From: Escherichia phage phi458
Sequence record: OP434518
Reading direction: 5' to 3' (one strand)
DNA: 44,850 nucleotides
Under the pieces are notes generated by a model that searched no databases, was not told the origin of the DNA, and worked only from the letters and a program-made list of their open reading frames with translations. Shown in pieces: positions 2,282-25,126 of this stretch (the first letter of the stretch is position 1; each line of letters opens with the position of its first letter). Position numbers and translations under genes: made by a program.

Positions 2282-2920
2282 TTGATAAGTTGTGATAGCA
2301 TCATTAAAAGTTTCAGTTCGTTGAGCAGGGATTACATGGTAAATCAGCAACAGCAACAGCAACAGATTAACGAAAATCTAAAAATTGAGGCAATCCGTTG
2401 GTATCAGAAGCTGCAGGAGATTACTTATCTTGAAGCAGGACAACACATGCGGGCTTTAAATCAGCTCATGTGGCAAATCCCTAGTTTCGTAATTGCTGTC
2501 AATGGTGGGTTGTGGTATGCAACAACACTGGCAAATGAAAGTTCCCTATGGATTATCTTTGCAGTGTTAGCATTGTTTGATTTCACAACAATGATTACAC
2601 TTTATCGCTTAAGGTCTTTAATTGGTTCGAAAATAGCACTACAAAAAAACATTGAAGACCCTTCAAAAAACTATATTTTAAATGAAATTACTAGAGACGC
2701 TGGATTTAAATTGCCCTCTAGCTATGATAATAAGGAAACTGGTTACATAGTAGTGTCGTGCTGGGCAATAATGCTTATTGTTTGCTTCTTTGTTAATATT
2801 GCTGGGGTATGTCATCCAAACTTGTTTTCAAAAGACATTTCACATAATACATACAAAGCAACAATTAAAAATATTGAGTCAGGATTATTTATCGAAGCAA
2901 AATCAGGATTATCAAAGTGA
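2282..2920 (+). CDS. Hypothetical integral membrane protein with poly-Gln tract (start may be ATG 2336)
   Basis: Three hydrophobic helices (IPSFVIAVNGGLWYATTL, LWIIFAVLALFDFTTMITL, YIVVSCWAIMLIVCFFVNIAGV); visibly AT-rich; stop overlaps the next gene's start. Confidence 0.6.
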   Translation: MISCDSIIKSFSSLSRDYMVNQQQQQQQINENLKIEAIRWYQKLQEITYLEAGQHMRALNQLMWQIPSFVIAVNGGLWYATTLANESSLWIIFAVLALFDFTTMITLYRLRSLIGSKIALQKNIEDPSKNYILNEITRDAGFKLPSSYDNKETGYIVVSCWAIMLIVCFFVNIAGVCHPNLFSKDISHNTYKATIKNIESGLFIEAKSGLSK

Positions 2921-3519
2921 CTTCGTGGAAGTTTTATGACAATAATGCTGATCGCTTATTTGCCGATTATATATCACTTGATTTTTACTCTATCTTTCAG
3001 GATGTTGAAGAGTTTATTTTACAATCTAAGGGTGTCTCTTTGGATGTCGGTTCAGGTTCCGGCCGTGATGCTGCTGCGTTAGATGAATTAGGTTATAAAG
3101 TAATAGCTGTTGAACCAAGTGAAAAGATGCGAAATTTGGCATCTTCATATTATAAATCTAACCATATTATATGGTTAGATGATTCATTGCCTTTTCTTCA
3201 TAGTGTTAAAGCAATGAATCTAAAGTTCGACCTTATTTTAGTCAGTGCTGTATGGATGCATCTTTCAAAAAAAGAGCAAAAAATCTCACTAGAGACGCTA
3301 ACTGATCTTTTAACATTGAATGGGAGAATGATAATTACATTGCGCTTGGGACCTCCCGAACCAGATAGAAACATTAACGTTGTTAATACTGAGGAACTTC
3401 TTGAGTTAGCGTCTCAGTTAGGTCTGAAAACATTGCGAGTTACGTCAATAAATAAAGATAGTTTTCAACGTAACCAGATAACTTGGCAGAAAGTTGTATT
3501 ATCAAAAAATAATGAGTAA
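2917..3519 (+). CDS. Class I SAM-dependent methyltransferase (GTG start, GTGA overlap with upstream ORF)
   Basis: Motif I LDVGSGSGRDA followed by an acidic residue after a beta-strand (VIAVEPS); 200 aa; AT-rich codon usage like the upstream membrane gene. Confidence 0.65.
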   Translation: MTSWKFYDNNADRLFADYISLDFYSIFQDVEEFILQSKGVSLDVGSGSGRDAAALDELGYKVIAVEPSEKMRNLASSYYKSNHIIWLDDSLPFLHSVKAMNLKFDLILVSAVWMHLSKKEQKISLETLTDLLTLNGRMIITLRLGPPEPDRNINVVNTEELLELASQLGLKTLRVTSINKDSFQRNQITWQKVVLSKNNE

Positions 3520-3530
3520 ATAACTTAGTA

Positions 3531-4775
3531 TTATTCGCACAGACCGTAGCGTGAAGAGCAAACCTCTATATCGAGACTTGCTTTTACAAGATCGTAGACC
3601 TTGCCACCGCGCCCTGTTTTTGCCCACTCTACGACTTCATAAACACCCGGAGAATTAAGATCTCCACGAGGACCATAAAATCCTGACCAGTCGATGTGTT
3701 GCACATCAGGTTTTAGCCCAAAAAGTTGAATATTTCGACCAAGTGGCAGATTGAACTGTTTCATCCAGCGTTGGCTTATCTCTCCTACGCTCATCCAGTG
3801 TACCCATCTACTAGCAAGGCGTACCTTCAACTCCCATTGTTTGTGCTTTTTGATGTGCTCTGGCCAGCGCGCAGCCGTCTCTGCAATTTCCTCTTTGTTG
3901 CATAGCACGCAATTCATGCAGCCAACACGAGACGCACCTTGCATATAAAGTGGATTTGGCTTAATTCCGAAATATTTGTGAACTGCGAATACGTCCTCAG
4001 CCGTCCATTTGTGGAGCGGCAGGAAGTTGTAGAGAAAATCGGCGTCGCGCATATCGCGGGAAAACCTCTCATATCCAGCGCGCTTAGAGGACTCATCCGC
4101 GCGAACACCAGACCATTGTACGATAACATCGCCAGCATCAAGGAGCGGCTTTATGGCTGCGTCGAAAGCTATCTGAATTTTCAGTTCGTCTGTACAGAAT
4201 CGGTCGCGCAGCATAGGGAACTTGCCATGCAGAAGGGAGCAATCCAAAAAGCTATTACCGGATGGGTGCATAACGGAAAGCGCAGCATCAAGAGCAGTTT
4301 CGAACTCAATTCCCCAGCGTTCTGCTGTGCGCTTCCAGGCTTGCCCGAATTTGGTGTCAGAACGTGCGAGGGAAGGCATGACTATGCCACGGTATGCTCC
4401 CATGCGGATCATCTGTCGTTTAGACCAGTTTTTTTGCAGATAAATTCGTCGTTTGGCAAAATCTTCTTCAGTGTAAATCCGCTTCACAACCTGCACAGGG
4501 CTACAACCGATCTGCTCATGAATGCTCCTGGCGAATTCGACAGTTAGATTATGCTCATTATCCGTGTCTGCCATAACAGCATGTACCTGTTTGCCGAATA
4601 ATGTGTGCGCCACTGCGAGTGTGGCAGTGCTGTCTTTTCCTGCTGAATAATTCACGATTATCTTATGATCATTAGGGATGCGAAATTCATTTATATATCT
4701 GTTGTAGGACTCTTCTATTTCGCGAATTTTCTTGCTGATGTCTGTTGGGACAATAATTATTGCTGCCTCGTTCAT
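3531..4775 (-). CDS. PAPS-reductase/DndC-family PP-loop ATP pyrophosphatase-like protein
   Basis: PP-loop-like NYSAGKDST near the N-terminus; Cys cluster CMNCVLC; 414 aa; in the pL operon where lambda carries orf61/ea8.5/ea22. Confidence 0.6.
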   Translation of the reverse strand: MNEAAIIIVPTDISKKIREIEESYNRYINEFRIPNDHKIIVNYSAGKDSTATLAVAHTLFGKQVHAVMADTDNEHNLTVEFARSIHEQIGCSPVQVVKRIYTEEDFAKRRIYLQKNWSKRQMIRMGAYRGIVMPSLARSDTKFGQAWKRTAERWGIEFETALDAALSVMHPSGNSFLDCSLLHGKFPMLRDRFCTDELKIQIAFDAAIKPLLDAGDVIVQWSGVRADESSKRAGYERFSRDMRDADFLYNFLPLHKWTAEDVFAVHKYFGIKPNPLYMQGASRVGCMNCVLCNKEEIAETAARWPEHIKKHKQWELKVRLASRWVHWMSVGEISQRWMKQFNLPLGRNIQLFGLKPDVQHIDWSGFYGPRGDLNSPGVYEVVEWAKTGRGGKVYDLVKASLDIEVCSSRYGLCE

Positions 4776-18657: not shown

Positions 18658-20759
18658 TGCTGAATCAGGAAACCGCAAAGGCAGCACGAACCGATTCAGG
18701 TTATATCCTTCGCGCACCGAGACGAATGCGGGTTGCTGATGCCGTTGCTCAGTATATGCGGGTGCCCATGGGGGCAGGGAACTCAGTCCCGTGGGATCCG
18801 CTGGTGGCACCGTATGTTATTGAGCCGATGAACTGCCTGGCCTCGCGTGAATACGACGCAGTGATATTTGTTGGCCCGGCACGAACCGGCAAGACTATCG
18901 GCCTGATTGACGGCTGGGTGATTTACAACGTGATTTGCGATCCTGCTGATATGCTGATCATTCAGATGACGGAGGAAAAAGCCCGCGAACACTCCAAAAA
19001 ACGACTCGCCAGAACGTTTCGCGTCAGCCCGGAAGTGGTCAGTCGCCTGAGTCCGAACAAAAATGACAACAACGTTTATGACAGAACATTCCTTGCTGGT
19101 AACTACCTGAAAATCGGCTGGCCGTCAGTCAATATCATGTCCTCATCAGATTATAAATGCGTCGCGCTGACGGATTATGACCGTTTTCCGGAAGATATTG
19201 ATGGCGAGGGGGATGCTTTCTCTCTTGCCTCAAAACGTACCACCACATTTATGTCCAGCGGTATGACGCTGGTGGAGAGTTCCCCCGGCAGGGATGTGAA
19301 GGATGTGAAATGGCGACGGACTTCACCGCATGAGGCTCCACCAACCACGGGGATCCTGTCGCTCTATAACCGTGGTGATCGCCGTCGCTGGTACTGGCCC
19401 TGTCCACACTGTGGTGAGTATTTTCAGCCCTGCGGCGATGTGGTTGCTGGTTTCCGTGATATTGCCGATCCCGTGCTGGCAAGTGAGGCGGCTTATATTC
19501 AGTGTCCTTCCTGTTCAGGACGGATTATGCCTGAACAAAAACGTGAGCTGAACGGACGTGGGGTCTGGTTGCGGGATGGTGAATCCATCAATGCGGATGG
19601 CAGTCGTTATGGTGATCCCCGACGCTCACGTATTGCGTCATTCTGGATGGAGGGTCCGGCAGCTGCTTACCAGACACTCTCGCAACTCGTTTACAAACTG
19701 CTTACTGCAGAACAGGAATACGAGACAACCGGAAGTGAAGAAACACTCAAGACGGTTATCAATACCGACTGGGGATTACCTTATCTTCCCCGCGCCAGCA
19801 TGGAGCAACGAAAAAGTGAACTGCTTGAGCAGCGGGCAGAGCCAGTTCCTTCCCGCAGTGTGCCGGATGGCGTTAATTTCCTTGTGGCGACAGTGGATGT
19901 GCAGGCGGGACGTCATCGCCGTTTTGTGGTTCAGGTAACGGGCTATGGCAGCCGTGGCGAACGCTGGATTATTGATCGTTACAACATCACGCAGTCATTG
20001 CGCGGTGACAGCGACGGGGAGAGCCAGCGAATTGATCCGGCCAGCTATCCGGAAGACTGGGATGTCCTGCTGACGGATGTTTTTCATAAAAGCTGGCCGC
20101 TGGCCTCCGATCCTTCTCAACAAATGCGACTGATGGCAATGGCGGTGGACTCCGGCGGTGAAGACGGGGTCACTGATAATGCCTATAAATTCTGGCGTCG
20201 TTGCCGTCGTGATGGCCTTGGTAAACGTATTTACCTGTTTAAGGGCGACAGCATCCGGCGCGCAAAACTGATCACCCGTACATTCCCTGATAACACCGGA
20301 CGAACGGGCCGACGGGCGCAGGCCGCAGGTGATGTGCCGCTCTGGCTTCTTCAGACGGATGCACTGAAAGACCGGGTGAATAACGCGTTATGGCGTGACT
20401 CGCCAGGTCCCGGCTATGTGCATTTCCCTGACTGGCTGGGGAGCTGGTTTTACGACGAACTGACGTATGAAGAGCGGAGCAGTGACGGGAAATGGAGTAA
20501 GCCGGGTCGCGGTGCCAACGAAGCTTTTGACCTGATGGTGTATGCCGAGGCTCTGGTCATTCTGCATGGATACGAAAAGATCCGCTGGCCGGATGCACCG
20601 GAGTGGGCGAGCCGGGAAACCTGGCTGGAGTGTGTCCAGGACAGTACCGAACCGTCATCCTCACCGGAACCGGTATCCACGCCTGTTAAAAAACAAAAAC
20701 GGAAGAAAACAGTAACTGACGATGTTAACCCCTGGCTGACTTCCGGAGGATGGTTATGA
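18657..20759 (+). CDS. Terminase large subunit (gpA-like)
   Basis: 700 aa; Walker A VGPARTGKT; position and size as lambda A. Confidence 0.85.
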   Translation: MLNQETAKAARTDSGYILRAPRRMRVADAVAQYMRVPMGAGNSVPWDPLVAPYVIEPMNCLASREYDAVIFVGPARTGKTIGLIDGWVIYNVICDPADMLIIQMTEEKAREHSKKRLARTFRVSPEVVSRLSPNKNDNNVYDRTFLAGNYLKIGWPSVNIMSSSDYKCVALTDYDRFPEDIDGEGDAFSLASKRTTTFMSSGMTLVESSPGRDVKDVKWRRTSPHEAPPTTGILSLYNRGDRRRWYWPCPHCGEYFQPCGDVVAGFRDIADPVLASEAAYIQCPSCSGRIMPEQKRELNGRGVWLRDGESINADGSRYGDPRRSRIASFWMEGPAAAYQTLSQLVYKLLTAEQEYETTGSEETLKTVINTDWGLPYLPRASMEQRKSELLEQRAEPVPSRSVPDGVNFLVATVDVQAGRHRRFVVQVTGYGSRGERWIIDRYNITQSLRGDSDGESQRIDPASYPEDWDVLLTDVFHKSWPLASDPSQQMRLMAMAVDSGGEDGVTDNAYKFWRRCRRDGLGKRIYLFKGDSIRRAKLITRTFPDNTGRTGRRAQAAGDVPLWLLQTDALKDRVNNALWRDSPGPGYVHFPDWLGSWFYDELTYEERSSDGKWSKPGRGANEAFDLMVYAEALVILHGYEKIRWPDAPEWASRETWLECVQDSTEPSSSPEPVSTPVKKQKRKKTVTDDVNPWLTSGGWL

Positions 20760-20968
20760 ACCAGAATGATATCGAAGCCATGATTCAGCGTTATATGGAA
20801 GCTGAAATGGCGGTGCTGGACGGAAAATCCGTCACCTTTAATGGTCAGCAGATGACCATGGAAAACTTATCTGAGATCCGGCAGGGACGGCAGGAGTGGG
20901 AGCGCCGCCTTGCGGCTCTGATTACACGACGACGGGGGCATCCCGGGTACCGGCTGGCGAGGTTCTGA
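20756..20968 (+). CDS. gpW-like head-tail joining protein
   Basis: Small ORF with ATGA overlap to terminase; C-terminal RRRGHPGY resembles the lambda W C-terminus. Confidence 0.6.
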   Translation: MNQNDIEAMIQRYMEAEMAVLDGKSVTFNGQQMTMENLSEIRQGRQEWERRLAALITRRRGHPGYRLARF

Positions 20969-22476
20969 TGGCAATTCTTGATGATGTGATTGGCGTTTTT
21001 TCACCTGGATGGAAAGCGGCAAGGCTGCGTTCCCGTGCGGTGATCCAGGCTTATGAAGCCGTAAAAACGACGCGGACACACAAAGCCCGACGGGAGAACC
21101 GAACTGCCGACCAGCTAAGCCAGTACGGGGCCGTGTCGTTACGTGAGCAGGCCCGTTACCTTGATAACAACCACGATCTGGTTATTGGTGTATTTGACAA
21201 GCTGGAAGAACGGGTGGTGGGGAAAAACGGGATTATTGTCGAGCCACATCCGGTATTACGCAATGGGGCCATTGCCCGTGATCTGGCAGCGGAGATTCGC
21301 ACCCGATGGAGTGAATGGTCTGTCAGCCCGGAAGTCACCGGGCAGTTTACCCGTCCGATGCTGGAACGTCTGATGCTGCGTACCTGGCTGCGCGATGGTG
21401 AGGTGTTTGTCCAGATGGTTTCCGGGCGCATAAACAGCCTGACGCCTTCTGCCGGTGTTCATTTCTGGCTGGAGGCGCTCGAGCCAGACTTTATTCCCAT
21501 GACCAGTGATGAGAGCAACAGGCTGAATCAGGGCGTGTTTGTTGATGACTGGGGGCGTCCCGAAAAATATCTGGTGTATAAAAGCCGTCCCGTATCCGGA
21601 CGGCAGATGGAAACCAAAGAAGTGGATGCAGAGCGAATGCTGCATCTTAAATTTGTTCGCCGTCTGCACCAGATGCGCGGGACGTCTTTGTTGTCCGGTG
21701 TGCTGATCCGCCTCAGTGCCCTGAAAGATTATGAAGATTATGAGCTGACTGCAGCAAGGATCGCCGCTGCTCTGGGGATGTACATCCGCAAAGGCGACGG
21801 GCAGAGCTATGAACCGGATGGTAATGGCAGCAAGGATAAGGAACGCGAGCTTACCATTCAGCCAGGCATTATTTACGACGATCTGAAACCCGGCGAAGAA
21901 ATCGGAATGGTGAAGTCGGATCGCCCCAATCCTAACCTTGAAACTTTTCGTAATGGTCAGTTGCGTGCCGTGGCGGCGGGCAGTCGTCTGAGTTTTTCCA
22001 GTACAGCGCGCAACTATAACGGCACTTACAGCGCCCAGCGTCAGGAGCTGGTTGAATCTACTGATGGCTACCTGATCCTGCAGGACTGGTTTATTGGTGC
22101 CGTCACCCGCCCGATGTATCGTGCATGGCTGAAACAGGCTGTGGCATCCGGTGTTATCAGGCTACCCCGCGATCTTGACCGTTCTTCACTGTATACCGCG
22201 GTGTATTCCGGACCAGTGATGCCGTGGATTGACCCTGTTAAGGAGGCTGAGGCCTGGAAAATCCAGATTCGTGGTGGAGCGGCGACAGAATCAGACTGGG
22301 TACGTGCAGGTGGTCGTAATCCGGATGATGTCAAACGTCGGCGCAAGGCCGAAATTGATGAAAACCGCAAGCTGGATCTGGTATTTGATACCGATCCGGC
22401 CAGTGATAAAGGAGGCAGCAGTGCCGCAACGAAACGACAGGAGCCGCAGCACACCGACGACCAGTCCGAAGAATAA
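20968..22476 (+). CDS. Portal protein (start at ATG overlapping the W stop)
   Basis: About 500 aa between terminase and head protease; the ORF-track 5' extension from 20896 overlaps W and is rejected. Confidence 0.8.
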   Translation: MAILDDVIGVFSPGWKAARLRSRAVIQAYEAVKTTRTHKARRENRTADQLSQYGAVSLREQARYLDNNHDLVIGVFDKLEERVVGKNGIIVEPHPVLRNGAIARDLAAEIRTRWSEWSVSPEVTGQFTRPMLERLMLRTWLRDGEVFVQMVSGRINSLTPSAGVHFWLEALEPDFIPMTSDESNRLNQGVFVDDWGRPEKYLVYKSRPVSGRQMETKEVDAERMLHLKFVRRLHQMRGTSLLSGVLIRLSALKDYEDYELTAARIAAALGMYIRKGDGQSYEPDGNGSKDKERELTIQPGIIYDDLKPGEEIGMVKSDRPNPNLETFRNGQLRAVAAGSRLSFSSTARNYNGTYSAQRQELVESTDGYLILQDWFIGAVTRPMYRAWLKQAVASGVIRLPRDLDRSSLYTAVYSGPVMPWIDPVKEAEAWKIQIRGGAATESDWVRAGGRNPDDVKRRRKAEIDENRKLDLVFDTDPASDKGGSSAATKRQEPQHTDDQSEE

Positions 22477-24448
22477 TTCCTGGTTCAGGATGCAGGCTGG
22501 TCACCAGAGTGACGCGGATATTTATATTTATGACGAGATTGGTTTCTGGGGTGTTACAGCGAAGCAGTTTATCAGTGATCTGAATGCACTGGGCGATATC
22601 ACCCACATTAATCTCCATATTAATTCACCGGGTGGCGATGTCTTTGAAGGCATCGCCATTTTTAATGCGCTGAAAACACATGGTGCGTCCATTACCGTTT
22701 ATGTCGACGGTGTGGCGGCGTCAATGGCGTCGGTCATTGCGATGGTGGGAAACCCGGTCATTATGCCGGAAAACACCTTCATGATGATTCATAAACCATT
22801 TGGCTTTACGGGCGGTGATGCGGAGGACATGCGCACCTATGCCGACCTGCTCGATAAGGTTGAGGCGGTTCTGTTACCCGCTTATGCACAGAAAACCGGG
22901 AAAACCACCGATGAAATTGCTGCCATGCTGGCGGATGAGACCTGGATGTCCGGTGCCGAATGTCTGGCACAGGGATTTGCTGATCAGGTGACGCCAGCCG
23001 TTAAGGCAATGGCATGTATTCAGTCAAAACGTACAGAGGAATTTAAAAAGATGCCGGAATCCATTCGAAACATGATTACTCCGCCACGCAACAGTGCTCC
23101 ACGCGTACAGGATGATGAACCTGCAGCCTCCCGGACGCCAGTGCAGGCAGCAGCACCCGTGGTGGATGAAAACAGTATCCGTGCGCAGGTACTGGCAGAG
23201 CAAAAAGCGCGTGTAAACGGTATTAATGATCTGTTTGCCATGTTTGGCGGGCGTTATCAGACGCTGCAGGCTCAGTGTCTTGCCGATCCTGAATGTTCGC
23301 TGGAGCAGGCCCGCGAAAAGCTGTTGAACGAGATGGGGCGCGAGTCCACGCCATCCAATAAAAATACCCCGGCTCATATTTATGCCGGAAACGGTAATTT
23401 TGTGGGGGACGGGATCCGCCAGGCGCTGATGGCGCGTGCCGGATTTGAAAAAACCGAACGTGATAATGTCTACAACGGGATGACCCTGCGTGAATATGCC
23501 CGTATGTCACTGACTGAACGGGGTATTGGGGTTTCCAGTTATAACCCGATGCAGATGGTCGGTGCGGCGTTCACACACAGTACGTCTGACTTCGGTAATA
23601 TTCTGCTGGATGTTGCGAACAAAGCCATTCTGCAGGGCTGGGAAGATGCCCCTGAAACCTATGAACAGTGGACGCGGAAAGGTCAGTTGTCTGATTTTAA
23701 AATTGCCCATCGTGTGGGTATGGGGGGCTTCAGTGCTCTGCGTCAGGTGCGTGAAGGGGCGGAATATAAATACGTCACCACCGGAGATAAACAGGCCACT
23801 ATTGCACTGGCGACCTATGGCGAGCTGTTCAGTATCACCCGTCAGGCCATTATCAATGATGATCTGAATATGCTGACCGATGTCCCGATGAAACTGGGCC
23901 GTGCGGCGAAATCCACTATTGCCGATCTGGTTTATGCCATTCTGACGTCTAACCCGAAAATCTCCACAGATAATGTAAGTCTGTTCGATAAAGCGAAACA
24001 TGCAAACGTACTGGAGAGCGCTGCAATGGACGTGGCATCGCTGGATAAAGCCCGCCAGTTGATGCGCGTTCAGAAAGAGGGGGAGCGTCATCTGAATATT
24101 CGTCCTGCGTTCGTACTGGTACCGACGGCGATGGAGTCTGTTGCTAACCAGGTCATTCGCTCCTCAAGTGTCAAGGGGGCTGACATTAACGCCGGTATTA
24201 TTAACCCGGTGAAAGATTTTGCGACCGTTATTGCAGAGCCTCGTCTTGATGATAACAGCCAGACCACCTTCTACCTGGCTGCGTCAAAAGGCTCCGATAC
24301 GATTGAAGTGGCTTATCTCAACGGTGTGGATACGCCATATATTGATCAGATGGAGGGCTTCAGTGTGGATGGCGTGACAACGAAAGTGCGTATTGACGCC
24401 GGTGTCGCGCCAGTTGATCACCGCGGTCTGGTGAAATGTACGGCGTAA
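22421..24448 (+). CDS. Fused ClpP-family prohead protease / scaffold-like linker / HK97-fold major capsid protein
   Basis: Single uninterrupted frame; GTG at 22421 preceded by AAAGGAGG; N-terminal protease region (IYIYDEIGFWGV...INSPGGDVFEGIAIFNALK...MASVIAMVG); coiled linker; C-terminal ~330-aa capsid-like domain. Confidence 0.7.
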   Translation: MPQRNDRSRSTPTTSPKNNSWFRMQAGHQSDADIYIYDEIGFWGVTAKQFISDLNALGDITHINLHINSPGGDVFEGIAIFNALKTHGASITVYVDGVAASMASVIAMVGNPVIMPENTFMMIHKPFGFTGGDAEDMRTYADLLDKVEAVLLPAYAQKTGKTTDEIAAMLADETWMSGAECLAQGFADQVTPAVKAMACIQSKRTEEFKKMPESIRNMITPPRNSAPRVQDDEPAASRTPVQAAAPVVDENSIRAQVLAEQKARVNGINDLFAMFGGRYQTLQAQCLADPECSLEQAREKLLNEMGRESTPSNKNTPAHIYAGNGNFVGDGIRQALMARAGFEKTERDNVYNGMTLREYARMSLTERGIGVSSYNPMQMVGAAFTHSTSDFGNILLDVANKAILQGWEDAPETYEQWTRKGQLSDFKIAHRVGMGGFSALRQVREGAEYKYVTTGDKQATIALATYGELFSITRQAIINDDLNMLTDVPMKLGRAAKSTIADLVYAILTSNPKISTDNVSLFDKAKHANVLESAAMDVASLDKARQLMRVQKEGERHLNIRPAFVLVPTAMESVANQVIRSSSVKGADINAGIINPVKDFATVIAEPRLDDNSQTTFYLAASKGSDTIEVAYLNGVDTPYIDQMEGFSVDGVTTKVRIDAGVAPVDHRGLVKCTA

Positions 24449-24471
24449 ACGTCGCAGACAACAACTCTGAT

Positions 24472-24491
24472 GGCCCGTAAGGGCTTTTTTT
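24472..24491 (+). terminator. Intrinsic terminator after the capsid gene
   Basis: GCCC-gtaa-GGGC followed by TTTTTTT. Confidence 0.6.
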
Positions 24492-24534
24492 GTACCTGAA
24501 ATCAGCCCCTGAACGGGGCTGTGCGGAGACAGTT

Positions 24535-24858
24535 ATGGCAAAGAATTTTGTAGAAGAAGGAAAAACGGTGGCGATTGTTGCCAGTGCAGCCATCAGCAGC
24601 GGAGACCTGGTGCAGGTGGGTGATGTTTTTGCGGTGGCGCTGACCGATATTCCACAGGGTGAAACAGGCGACGGCCTGACCGAAGGTGTGTTTATGCTGC
24701 CTAAGCTGAAAACGGATGACATGAAAACGGGTAAGAAGGTTTATCTGAAGTCCGGAAAAGTTCAGCTGACTAACAGCGGCTCTGATCCGCTGGTCGGGGT
24801 TGTCTGGGCAGATGCCGGAACCAGTGCAGAAGAAGTGCCGGTAAAACTCAATGTCTGA
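24535..24858 (+). CDS. Small head-associated protein (possible decoration protein)
   Basis: 108 aa from ATG 24535 with GGAGA RBS; Gly/Val-rich; directly after the capsid gene. Confidence 0.55.
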   Translation: MAKNFVEEGKTVAIVASAAISSGDLVQVGDVFAVALTDIPQGETGDGLTEGVFMLPKLKTDDMKTGKKVYLKSGKVQLTNSGSDPLVGVVWADAGTSAEEVPVKLNV

Positions 24859-25126
24859 TCCCTTTTCCCGGCTGGCAGCGCGTATGGATGCTATCACGGT
24901 CAGAAAGATGGGAAAGACAGCCTCGATTAATGATGTCGATATGACTGTGATCCCGGGAGAAACACTGGCAGAGCTGAATGCTCTGTCCGGACCTGCGGTC
25001 TCTCTGGTGGTGTTTTCTTCGGGATACCGCCCACGGCGCGGTGATCGCGTTGTTTATGACGGACAACAATGGACGGTCACACGGCATGAACGCTTTAACG
25101 GTAAGCCAATGATCTTTATTGAGTAA
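24851..25126 (+). CDS. Head-tail connector/adaptor protein (putative)
   Basis: 91-aa ORF between head and tail modules; assignment by position. Confidence 0.5.
   Translation: MSDPFSRLAARMDAITVRKMGKTASINDVDMTVIPGETLAELNALSGPAVSLVVFSSGYRPRRGDRVVYDGQQWTVTRHERFNGKPMIFIE

Follow-up and report, generated by a model that had tools for sequence, protein, structure and literature searches.

Nested protease/scaffold genes have been described in phage lambda, herpes simplex virus 1 (HSV-1) and HFTV1 (2026 HFTV1 preprint). In lambda C/Nu3, Mu I/Z, HSV-1 UL26/UL26.5 and HFTV1 gp17/gp17.5, an N-terminal protease and a C-terminal scaffold lie in one frame. In HK97, the head protease gp4 is encoded by a separate gene, and the delta domain of the capsid protein gp5 is removed by this protease. 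For the Salmonella phage Gifsy-2 (STM1034.3n; Virology 402:355), a passage in PMC12315714 states that the protease and coat genes are fused, and the title of Effantin et al. 2010, as cited in PMC8538268, calls the gene a tripartite capsid gene; a ClpP-gpT fusion of about 700 residues has also been found in a third of Paracoccus siphovirus prophages (PMC6536676). Herein, a gene of this kind is analysed in a stretch of 44,850 nucleotides (nt) from Escherichia phage phi458 (sequence record OP434518), the whole of which is referred to as the window. The gene is a Gifsy-2-type fused protease-scaffold-capsid gene, orthologous to the 'tripartite capsid gene' of Gifsy-2, and the locus as a whole is probably best explained as such a fused head gene with a nested second product, which would begin at an internal ATG, Met211.

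The fused head gene, its family and its domains

In the open reading frame (ORF) listing of the window, the fusion frame is open from TTG 22229 to TAA 24446-24448 and contains no internal stop codon. The original prediction, a model's reading of the letters of this DNA, had proposed one uninterrupted frame at 22421-24448 that runs from a ClpP-type protease through a linker into a capsid-like domain. This is borne out by the listing and by Pfam, with CLP_protease at residues 31-191 (E=4e-36) and Phage_capsid_4 at residues 375-672 (E=9e-55; a match to Mu-like_gpT is weak). The predicted size of 676 codons is right in extent, but the count includes the stop and leaves 675 sense codons. Two AlphaFold2 models were built, one of the full-length protein from an alignment of 50 diverse homologues (mean predicted local distance difference test score, pLDDT, 86.9) and one of residues 211-675 (mean pLDDT 87.3). 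The parts of the gene are listed below, with the supporting evidence in brackets.

22421-24448, plus strand: full fusion ORF, 675 residues and stop, 73.5 kDa (open frame; NF045540 profile match)
22481-23005, plus strand: ClpP-type (S14) head maturation protease domain, about residues 21-195 (Pfam, NF045542, ClpP alignment, Foldseek, pLDDT >90)
22721-22723 and 22790-22792, plus strand: catalytic Ser101 and His124 (alignment to ClpP structures)
23099-23164, plus strand: disordered Pro/Ala/Gln-rich spacer, residues 227-248 (pLDDT <50; gapped and length-variable in alignments)
23168-23341, plus strand: helical scaffold-like (delta-domain-like) segment, residues 250-307 (pLDDT 84-96 in the models)
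23342-23398, plus strand: low-confidence hinge, residues 308-326 (pLDDT 52-71; indels among relatives)
23399-24445, plus strand: major capsid protein region, about residues 327-675, with a predicted HK97-fold core from about 375 (Pfam, Foldseek)

The protein matches NCBIfam NF045540 with 985.1 bits against a cutoff of 475, profile positions 2-651 of 652 aligning with residues 32-674. It is 70% identical to the Gifsy-2 gene product over 97% of its length, 72% identical to that of Fels-1, about 76% identical to those of Shiga toxin (Stx)-converting phages, and 56% identical to those of the Pseudomonas phages F10, MD8 and JBD68. At the DNA level, identity with phages cdtI, mEp460, Ayreon and Tritos exceeds 99% across the fusion region, and an E. 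coli A14 prophage is 100% identical, with exactly 22421-24448 annotated under the fusion name by the NCBI Prokaryotic Genome Annotation Pipeline (PGAP). The gene sits in a lambdoid prophage head module of the cdtI/mEp460 group. Gifsy-2 and NF045540 display the same order, namely a ClpP-type protease, a linker of 130-200 residues and an HK97-fold capsid; like the window, Gifsy-2 has a lambda-type portal gene upstream, with an overlapping start, and a DUF2190 gene downstream. Gifsy-2 differs by sequence divergence and a different N-terminal extension (annotated at 696 residues), whereas the window gene fits the family throughout. Identification as a cellular ClpP orthologue was rejected, the TIGR00493 score being 58.6 bits against a cutoff of 308.6 and all ClpP equivalogs scoring far under their cutoffs.

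Copies covering at least 80% of the query were found in 2018 of 5426 complete E. coli genomes (about 37%), and the same fusion in 73 phage records. Two sets of relatives were compared: 25 full-length gammaproteobacterial loci from other genera, at 52-76% identity (22 non-redundant), and a larger set of 51 non-redundant fusion genes from genomes and IMG/VR loci, with less than 90% mutual identity and 31-100% identity to the window gene. The comparison with relatives that the original prediction had recommended shows the fusion to be conserved, as one gene with an uninterrupted frame, in all 51, down to 31% identity. Furthermore, in an exhaustive HMMER search, representatives of 640-700 residues from over 100 clusters formed at 50% identity span the whole query, and a Microcystis phage 'major head protein' is a 666-residue fusion as well. 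Because so many clusters have full-span representatives, the fusion must be old and widespread; it has already been described and named, with a curated family of its own.

These comparative data also refute the idea that the fusion is an artefact, whether of sequencing or assembly, by which two separate genes would have been run together, or of a mutation that recently struck a prophage in decay, a reading to which practically no weight can be given. Frameshifted database entries do exist, among them portal-fusion chimeras, PAN70 and L238, yet the same frame recurs in thousands of genomes and in relatives down to the most distant of the set, is recognised by a curated family, and is carried by plaque-forming phages (cdtI, mEp460, Ayreon, Gifsy-2, and Pseudomonas F10 and MD8). 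Several candidates for a relative with the genes split were examined. The sign looked for was a capsid part encoded on its own from Met211 onwards. P0230 proved to be cut short by the end of its contig, P0166/L238 is a frameshifted copy, L037 is an unrelated stand-alone protease locus, and the Microcystis phage protein is the fusion mentioned above; since none is a clean split, they do not count as evidence. The frameshift in PAN70 was likewise set aside as uninformative, being located at about residue 550 in a homopolymer of the capsid domain.

Two database copies deserve a separate description. The L238 locus (2357-4332 of BBMQ01000056.1, assembly GCA_000755365.1) is a frameshifted fusion copy that contains an A9 homopolymer in its protease part and is broken a second time ahead of the linker; its gene caller begins a 443-residue capsid part at the Met-Pro equivalent of Met211, with AAGGAT upstream. 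In VT1-Sakai (AP000400.1; H20, H113), the fusion gene matches in two pieces with IS629 annotated beneath the match, and an IS629 insertion appears to interrupt the head gene of this prophage.

Within the protein, the N-terminal part matches NF045542, 'head maturation protease, ClpP-related' (Clp_rel_HeadMat), with 216 bits against a cutoff of 120. In the AlphaFold2 model, residues 1-18 are disordered and residues 21-195 form a compact alpha/beta domain with pLDDT above 90, which reached a target-normalised template modelling (TM) score of about 0.8 against ClpP structures in a Foldseek search with the full-length model. Sequence alignment to these structures places the catalytic Ser within AASMAS and the His within MIHKP. 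Cellular ClpP therefore shares the fold (TM about 0.8) and has its Ser and His in the same motifs, whereas the window domain is a phage head maturation protease. Because Ser101 and His124 are invariant in the alignment of 50 diverse homologues, the protease is predicted to be active.

The linker, about residues 196-326, is partly disordered and partly helical. Two short helices lie within residues 203-219 of the AlphaFold2 model, and both models contain helices at 250-273, 280-288 and 294-307 (pLDDT 84-96). The 'coiled linker' of the original prediction is therefore correct as to the helices, but not for the disordered stretch 227-248 and the low-confidence hinge 308-326. A Pfam search gave no family for residues 196-326. 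Residues 327-675 are well predicted. In Foldseek, the full-length model matched mostly ClpP, and HK97-fold matches emerged with the separate model of residues 211-675, which matched the HK97, D3, T5 and HFTV1 capsids and encapsulins at a probability of 1.0 over 275-320 aligned columns. Because the matches to HK97-fold shells span this number of columns, the HK97-fold core is predicted to start near residue 375, with extra helices before it. A sequence search of solved structures returned only ClpP chains, and no capsid, among the best 60 of 107 matches.

A putative internal start at Met211

The original prediction had named an internal restart as one option. A candidate internal ribosome-binding site and start codon ahead of the capsid domain, GAGGAA and ATG 23051, were indeed found, and their conservation directly after the protease domain gives this option comparative support. 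The elements concerned are the following.

23036-23041, plus strand: putative internal Shine-Dalgarno (SD) sequence GAGGAA, core AGGA at 23037-23040 (xAGGAx conserved at fixed distance)
23051-23053, plus strand: in-frame ATG, Met211, putative internal start (SD and ATG conserved in relatives)
23051-24448, plus strand: nested ORF for a candidate product of 465 residues and 50.7 kDa, comprising the scaffold-like linker and the capsid

ATG 23051, in the context KK-M-PESIR, is invariant in the 25 gammaproteobacterial loci (22 of 22 non-redundant), always with xAGGAx upstream. In the larger set, the Met211 column holds ATG in 41 of 51 genes, and all 41 have AGGA at -14 to -11. Codon -5 is GAG in 32 sequences, AAG in 4 and CAG in 3 (Glu, Lys or Gln) and never xAA; codon -4 occurs with any of the four bases at its third position (Glu/Asp), and the AGGA across the codon boundary is unchanging. 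Because variation affects codon -5 at its first base and codon -4 at its third, conservation applies to the four RNA bases AGGA and not to the amino acids. At its third position, codon -5 has G in 39 of 39 sequences, where the gene-wide frequency is 0.50; of the 48 columns in which at least 35 sequences carry a Glu, Lys or Gln codon, no other shows 100% G there.

The remaining 10 of the 51 genes (31-44% identity), which are without this Met, have an in-frame SD and ATG 10-30 codons downstream in the linker, examples being TAAGGAGACTCAA-ATG, AAGGAGAGCACCACT-ATG and CAAGGAGGAACC-ATG. Counting any SD at or below -5.4 kcal/mol followed by an ATG, such a pair lies within aligned residues 205-242 in 50 of 51 genes, against 2.1 per about 600 codons elsewhere. 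In addition, pairwise synonymous identity was scanned among 22 sequences in 7-codon windows (mean 0.50, standard deviation 0.10); the strongest signal is at the portal overlap, and the next, at 0.68-0.75, covers 23018-23050, just upstream of the ATG. The RNA around the candidate start is weakly structured: when 60-nt segments of the same gene are compared, the one with the ATG at its centre has less structure than 98% of the others (median), and in the window itself the sequence around ATG 23051 folds less well than 189 of 200 shuffles. At the Met211 equivalent of Gifsy-2, GAGGAG is followed by 9 nt and ATG-CCA, and gene callers begin two truncated or frameshifted copies exactly at the Met211 Met-Pro. 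Altogether, the nucleotide conservation of GAGGAA and ATG 23051 is of the type expected of a ribosome-binding site and suggests that they serve as one.

Several points weigh against internal initiation, which is itself deduced from the sequence. The internal SD is short (GAGG or AGGA), with a duplex energy of -6.0 against -11.6 kcal/mol for the SD upstream of the full-length product, and its distance of 10-11 nt from the ATG is on the long side. In the broad family, Met occurs at this column in 7 of 133 cluster representatives and Pro212 is 93% conserved; because Pro212 is so well conserved and Met211 rare, the Met-Pro motif may have a protein-level role. Since the relatives share phylogeny, the counts given above overstate the number of independent observations. 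SD-like energies can also arise from coding constraint alone, as at Met137. Furthermore, three distant genes have strongly structured RNA at their candidate start: in the IMG/VR loci L154, L157 and L173, unlike the other 48 genes, the region around the linker SD and ATG reaches -19 to -22 kcal/mol per 60 nt, a structure that may be due to chance or may be a regulatory hairpin.

These points bear on a simpler account, in which a single 73.5-kDa polyprotein is made with no internal initiation, about 415 subunits each carry a protease, and the N-terminal parts are removed by autoproteolysis; the Met-Pro together with the preceding E/K/Q-E/D-Phe motif (one-letter codes) would then be a protein feature for docking or cleavage. 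A self-processing polyprotein had also been put forward by the original prediction, and the invariant Ser101 and His124 and the published Gifsy-2 protease/coat fusion are consistent with self-processing. We regard the absence of internal initiation as rather unlikely. It is nevertheless a serious rival, because the internal SD is weak beside the much stronger upstream one and stands 10-11 nt from its ATG, and because Pro212, not Met211, is conserved across the broad family. What speaks against it is that the conserved unit consists of four bases lying over a codon boundary, with codon -5 ending in G throughout, that relatives without Met211 carry another SD and ATG nearby, and that synonymous constraint and weak RNA structure coincide in the region.

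Other candidate signals were rejected. The SD-like signal at Met137, within the protease domain, is made up of Gly-Gly-Asp codons with free wobble bases, and in the window its SD-like bases abut the ATG. For ATG and GTG candidates near residues 330-380, an SD is present in only 6-8 of 51 genes. A dnaX-like -1 slippery site, TTT AAA AAG, precedes ATG 23051; its heptamer is imperfect (T AAA AAG), and the site is not conserved, relatives having TTT GAA AAG and similar sequences.

The 2010 abstract of Effantin et al. on Gifsy-2 is said to describe T=7 geometry, a decoration protein of the lambda gpD kind and one composite gene, and reportedly does not mention an internal start, which would favour the single polyprotein. 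Citing papers refer to this study mainly for the geometry of the capsid, and PMC12315714 is the one that names the fusion outright. No report of a conserved internal start was found in the searchable literature, and the full 2010 Gifsy-2 paper may cover it.

Proposed head assembly and comparison with known systems

A nested gene pair, in which the scaffold-capsid protein is the main building block and the full-length protein a minority carrier of the protease, is judged somewhat likelier to be true than not. According to this model, translation from GTG 22421 would yield the 73.5-kDa protease-scaffold-capsid protein, and ribosomes would also begin at ATG 23051 to yield the 50.7-kDa scaffold-capsid protein. 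A T=7 procapsid would form on the portal from the two products together, by way of their capsid domains, and the protease would enter it because it is covalently tethered in the full-length copies. Inside, it would cut off its own domain and the linker; we would guess that the capsid-proximal cut lies in the hinge 308-326. As DNA is packaged, the mature shell would expand, and trimers of the decoration protein encoded downstream would stabilise it. The parts of this model that we infer are that the internal start is used, in what ratio the products are made and where the cleavages fall.

The arrangement resembles the lambda C/Nu3 type in that an internal start, here a putative one, would make the scaffold part, and the protease would be delivered joined to the scaffold. 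Unlike in that type, the frame continues past the scaffold-like linker and through the capsid domain to 24448, so that the nest would include the capsid protein and not the scaffold alone. The proteases differ as well, that of lambda C belonging to an S49/SppA-type family and that of the window to the ClpP (S14) type.

With HK97, the likeness lies in the putative 465-residue product, which matches the logic of gp5: a helical N-terminal assembly (delta-like) domain is joined to an HK97-fold capsid and, by the same logic, would be removed by the head protease. The helices at 250-307 precede the capsid fold in both models. No stop codon separates the protease from the capsid domain, whereas HK97 gp4 is a gene of its own. 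In addition, the decoration gene downstream suggests lambda-like cementing rather than the chainmail crosslinks of HK97.

If the internal start is used, it would explain how the packing of about 415 protease copies into each head is avoided. Lambda, Mu, herpesviruses and an archaeal virus are known to set protease:scaffold stoichiometry by nested genes, and this family would then join them. The arrangement would furthermore constitute a third nested protease/scaffold variant, after lambda C/Nu3 and herpesvirus UL26/UL26.5, with the nest reaching through the capsid protein. The fusion itself matters mainly for annotation.

Start codon, annotation and neighbouring genes

Two starts have been annotated for the full-length product, and they are listed here with the upstream SD.

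22408-22415, plus strand: Shine-Dalgarno AAAGGAGG of the full-length product (read in the sequence; anti-SD duplex -11.6 kcal/mol)
22421-22423, plus strand: GTG start of the 675-residue product (5-nt spacer CAGCA after AAAGGAGG; PGAP start in E. coli A14)
22490-22492, plus strand: ATG start of phage GenBank records, 652 residues, probably the internal Met24 (without upstream SD)

The GTG start with a strong ribosome-binding site inside the 3' end of the portal gene, as foreseen in the original prediction, is upheld by the conservation of the SD and of GTG or ATG and by the agreement of PGAP. AAAGGAG[GAC] with its 5-nt spacer is kept in most enterobacterial relatives. At the position equivalent to 22421, most relatives have GTG and several have ATG, as is usual where a codon serves as a start; in the 25 loci from other genera, AAAGGAG(G) and, five bases on, a GTG or ATG are conserved at this place. 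The portal TAA at 22474-22476 makes the overlap of the two genes 56 nt. Between this stop and 22490, where the codons are not dual-coding, Ser-Trp-Phe/Tyr is conserved despite changes at the wobble positions and the use of TCN as well as AGY codons for Ser, a pattern that reads as the signature of protein-level selection in this frame.

That the gene instead starts at ATG 22490, with the upstream SD and GTG merely portal coding, is very improbable. It is annotated so in the GenBank records of cdtI, mEp460 and Ayreon, the ATG lies 13 nt past the portal stop, where translational coupling could reach it, and the conservation upstream is partly confounded by the overlapping portal frame. Against this stand the conserved SD with GTG or ATG upstream, the choice of GTG by PGAP and the lack of an SD before 22490, where 4 of 22 non-redundant relatives have a non-start codon (ATC, CTG, ATT or CTT) and the Ser-Trp-Phe/Tyr preceding it is conserved. 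Moreover, HMMER alignments with distant homologues already begin at query residues 16-20, ahead of Met24, and in the AlphaFold2 model the protease domain has one of its strands at residues 23-26. On these comparisons GTG 22421 appears the better supported start, and that of the phage records is probably 23 codons too late.

Naming is equally affected. In phage records, homologues are labelled 'head-tail preconnector protein Nu3', 'head-tail preconnector protease C', 'terminase protein', 'head maturation protease', 'Major Capsid Protein', 'Clp protease ClpP' or 'hypothetical protein', a misnaming that recurs systematically from one pipeline to the next. If the gene were named correctly and begun at the GTG, it would be easier to annotate the prophage head module in about a third of E. 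coli genomes, including Stx-converting and cytolethal distending toxin (Cdt)-converting phages.

The elements flanking the fusion gene are as follows.

20968-22476, plus strand: portal gene, lambda gpB family (TIGR01539 portal_lambda, 453 bits; Pfam Phage_portal_2; coordinates per cdtI and PGAP)
24472-24495, plus strand: terminator-like hairpin and T-run (annotated terminator in the Ayreon and mEp460 records)
24535-24858, plus strand: head decoration (cement) protein gene, DUF2190 (Pfam Phage_cement_2, E=2e-20; head decoration in cdtI)

The hairpin, GGCCCGTAAGGGCT followed by seven T, begins 24 nt past the fusion stop and precedes the decoration gene. Lying within the late operon, it may act by partial termination to set the dosage of head relative to tail genes. 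A promoter scan of 22200-24700 found none.

The fusion frame is also open for 192 nt upstream of the GTG (22229-22420), inside the portal gene, so that a 1-nt indel in the portal 3' end yields a portal-protease-capsid 'protein' of about 1159 residues. About 12 such database proteins exist (P0006-P0017). A programmed frameshift from the portal into the fusion frame was rejected, the junctions being scattered over portal residues 448-510, and these entries are sporadic indels, errors or pseudogenes.

Upstream, a gpW-like head-tail joining gene (20750-20968) shares its last base with the A of the portal ATG, as is typical of translationally coupled genes; the portal frame extends to GTG 20896 in the ORF listing, a start that annotators do not use. 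Downstream, 24851-25126 is named 'DNA breaking-rejoining protein' by PGAP and minor tail or FII-like head-tail joining protein in phage records, and the PGAP name looks wrong because the gene follows the decoration gene.

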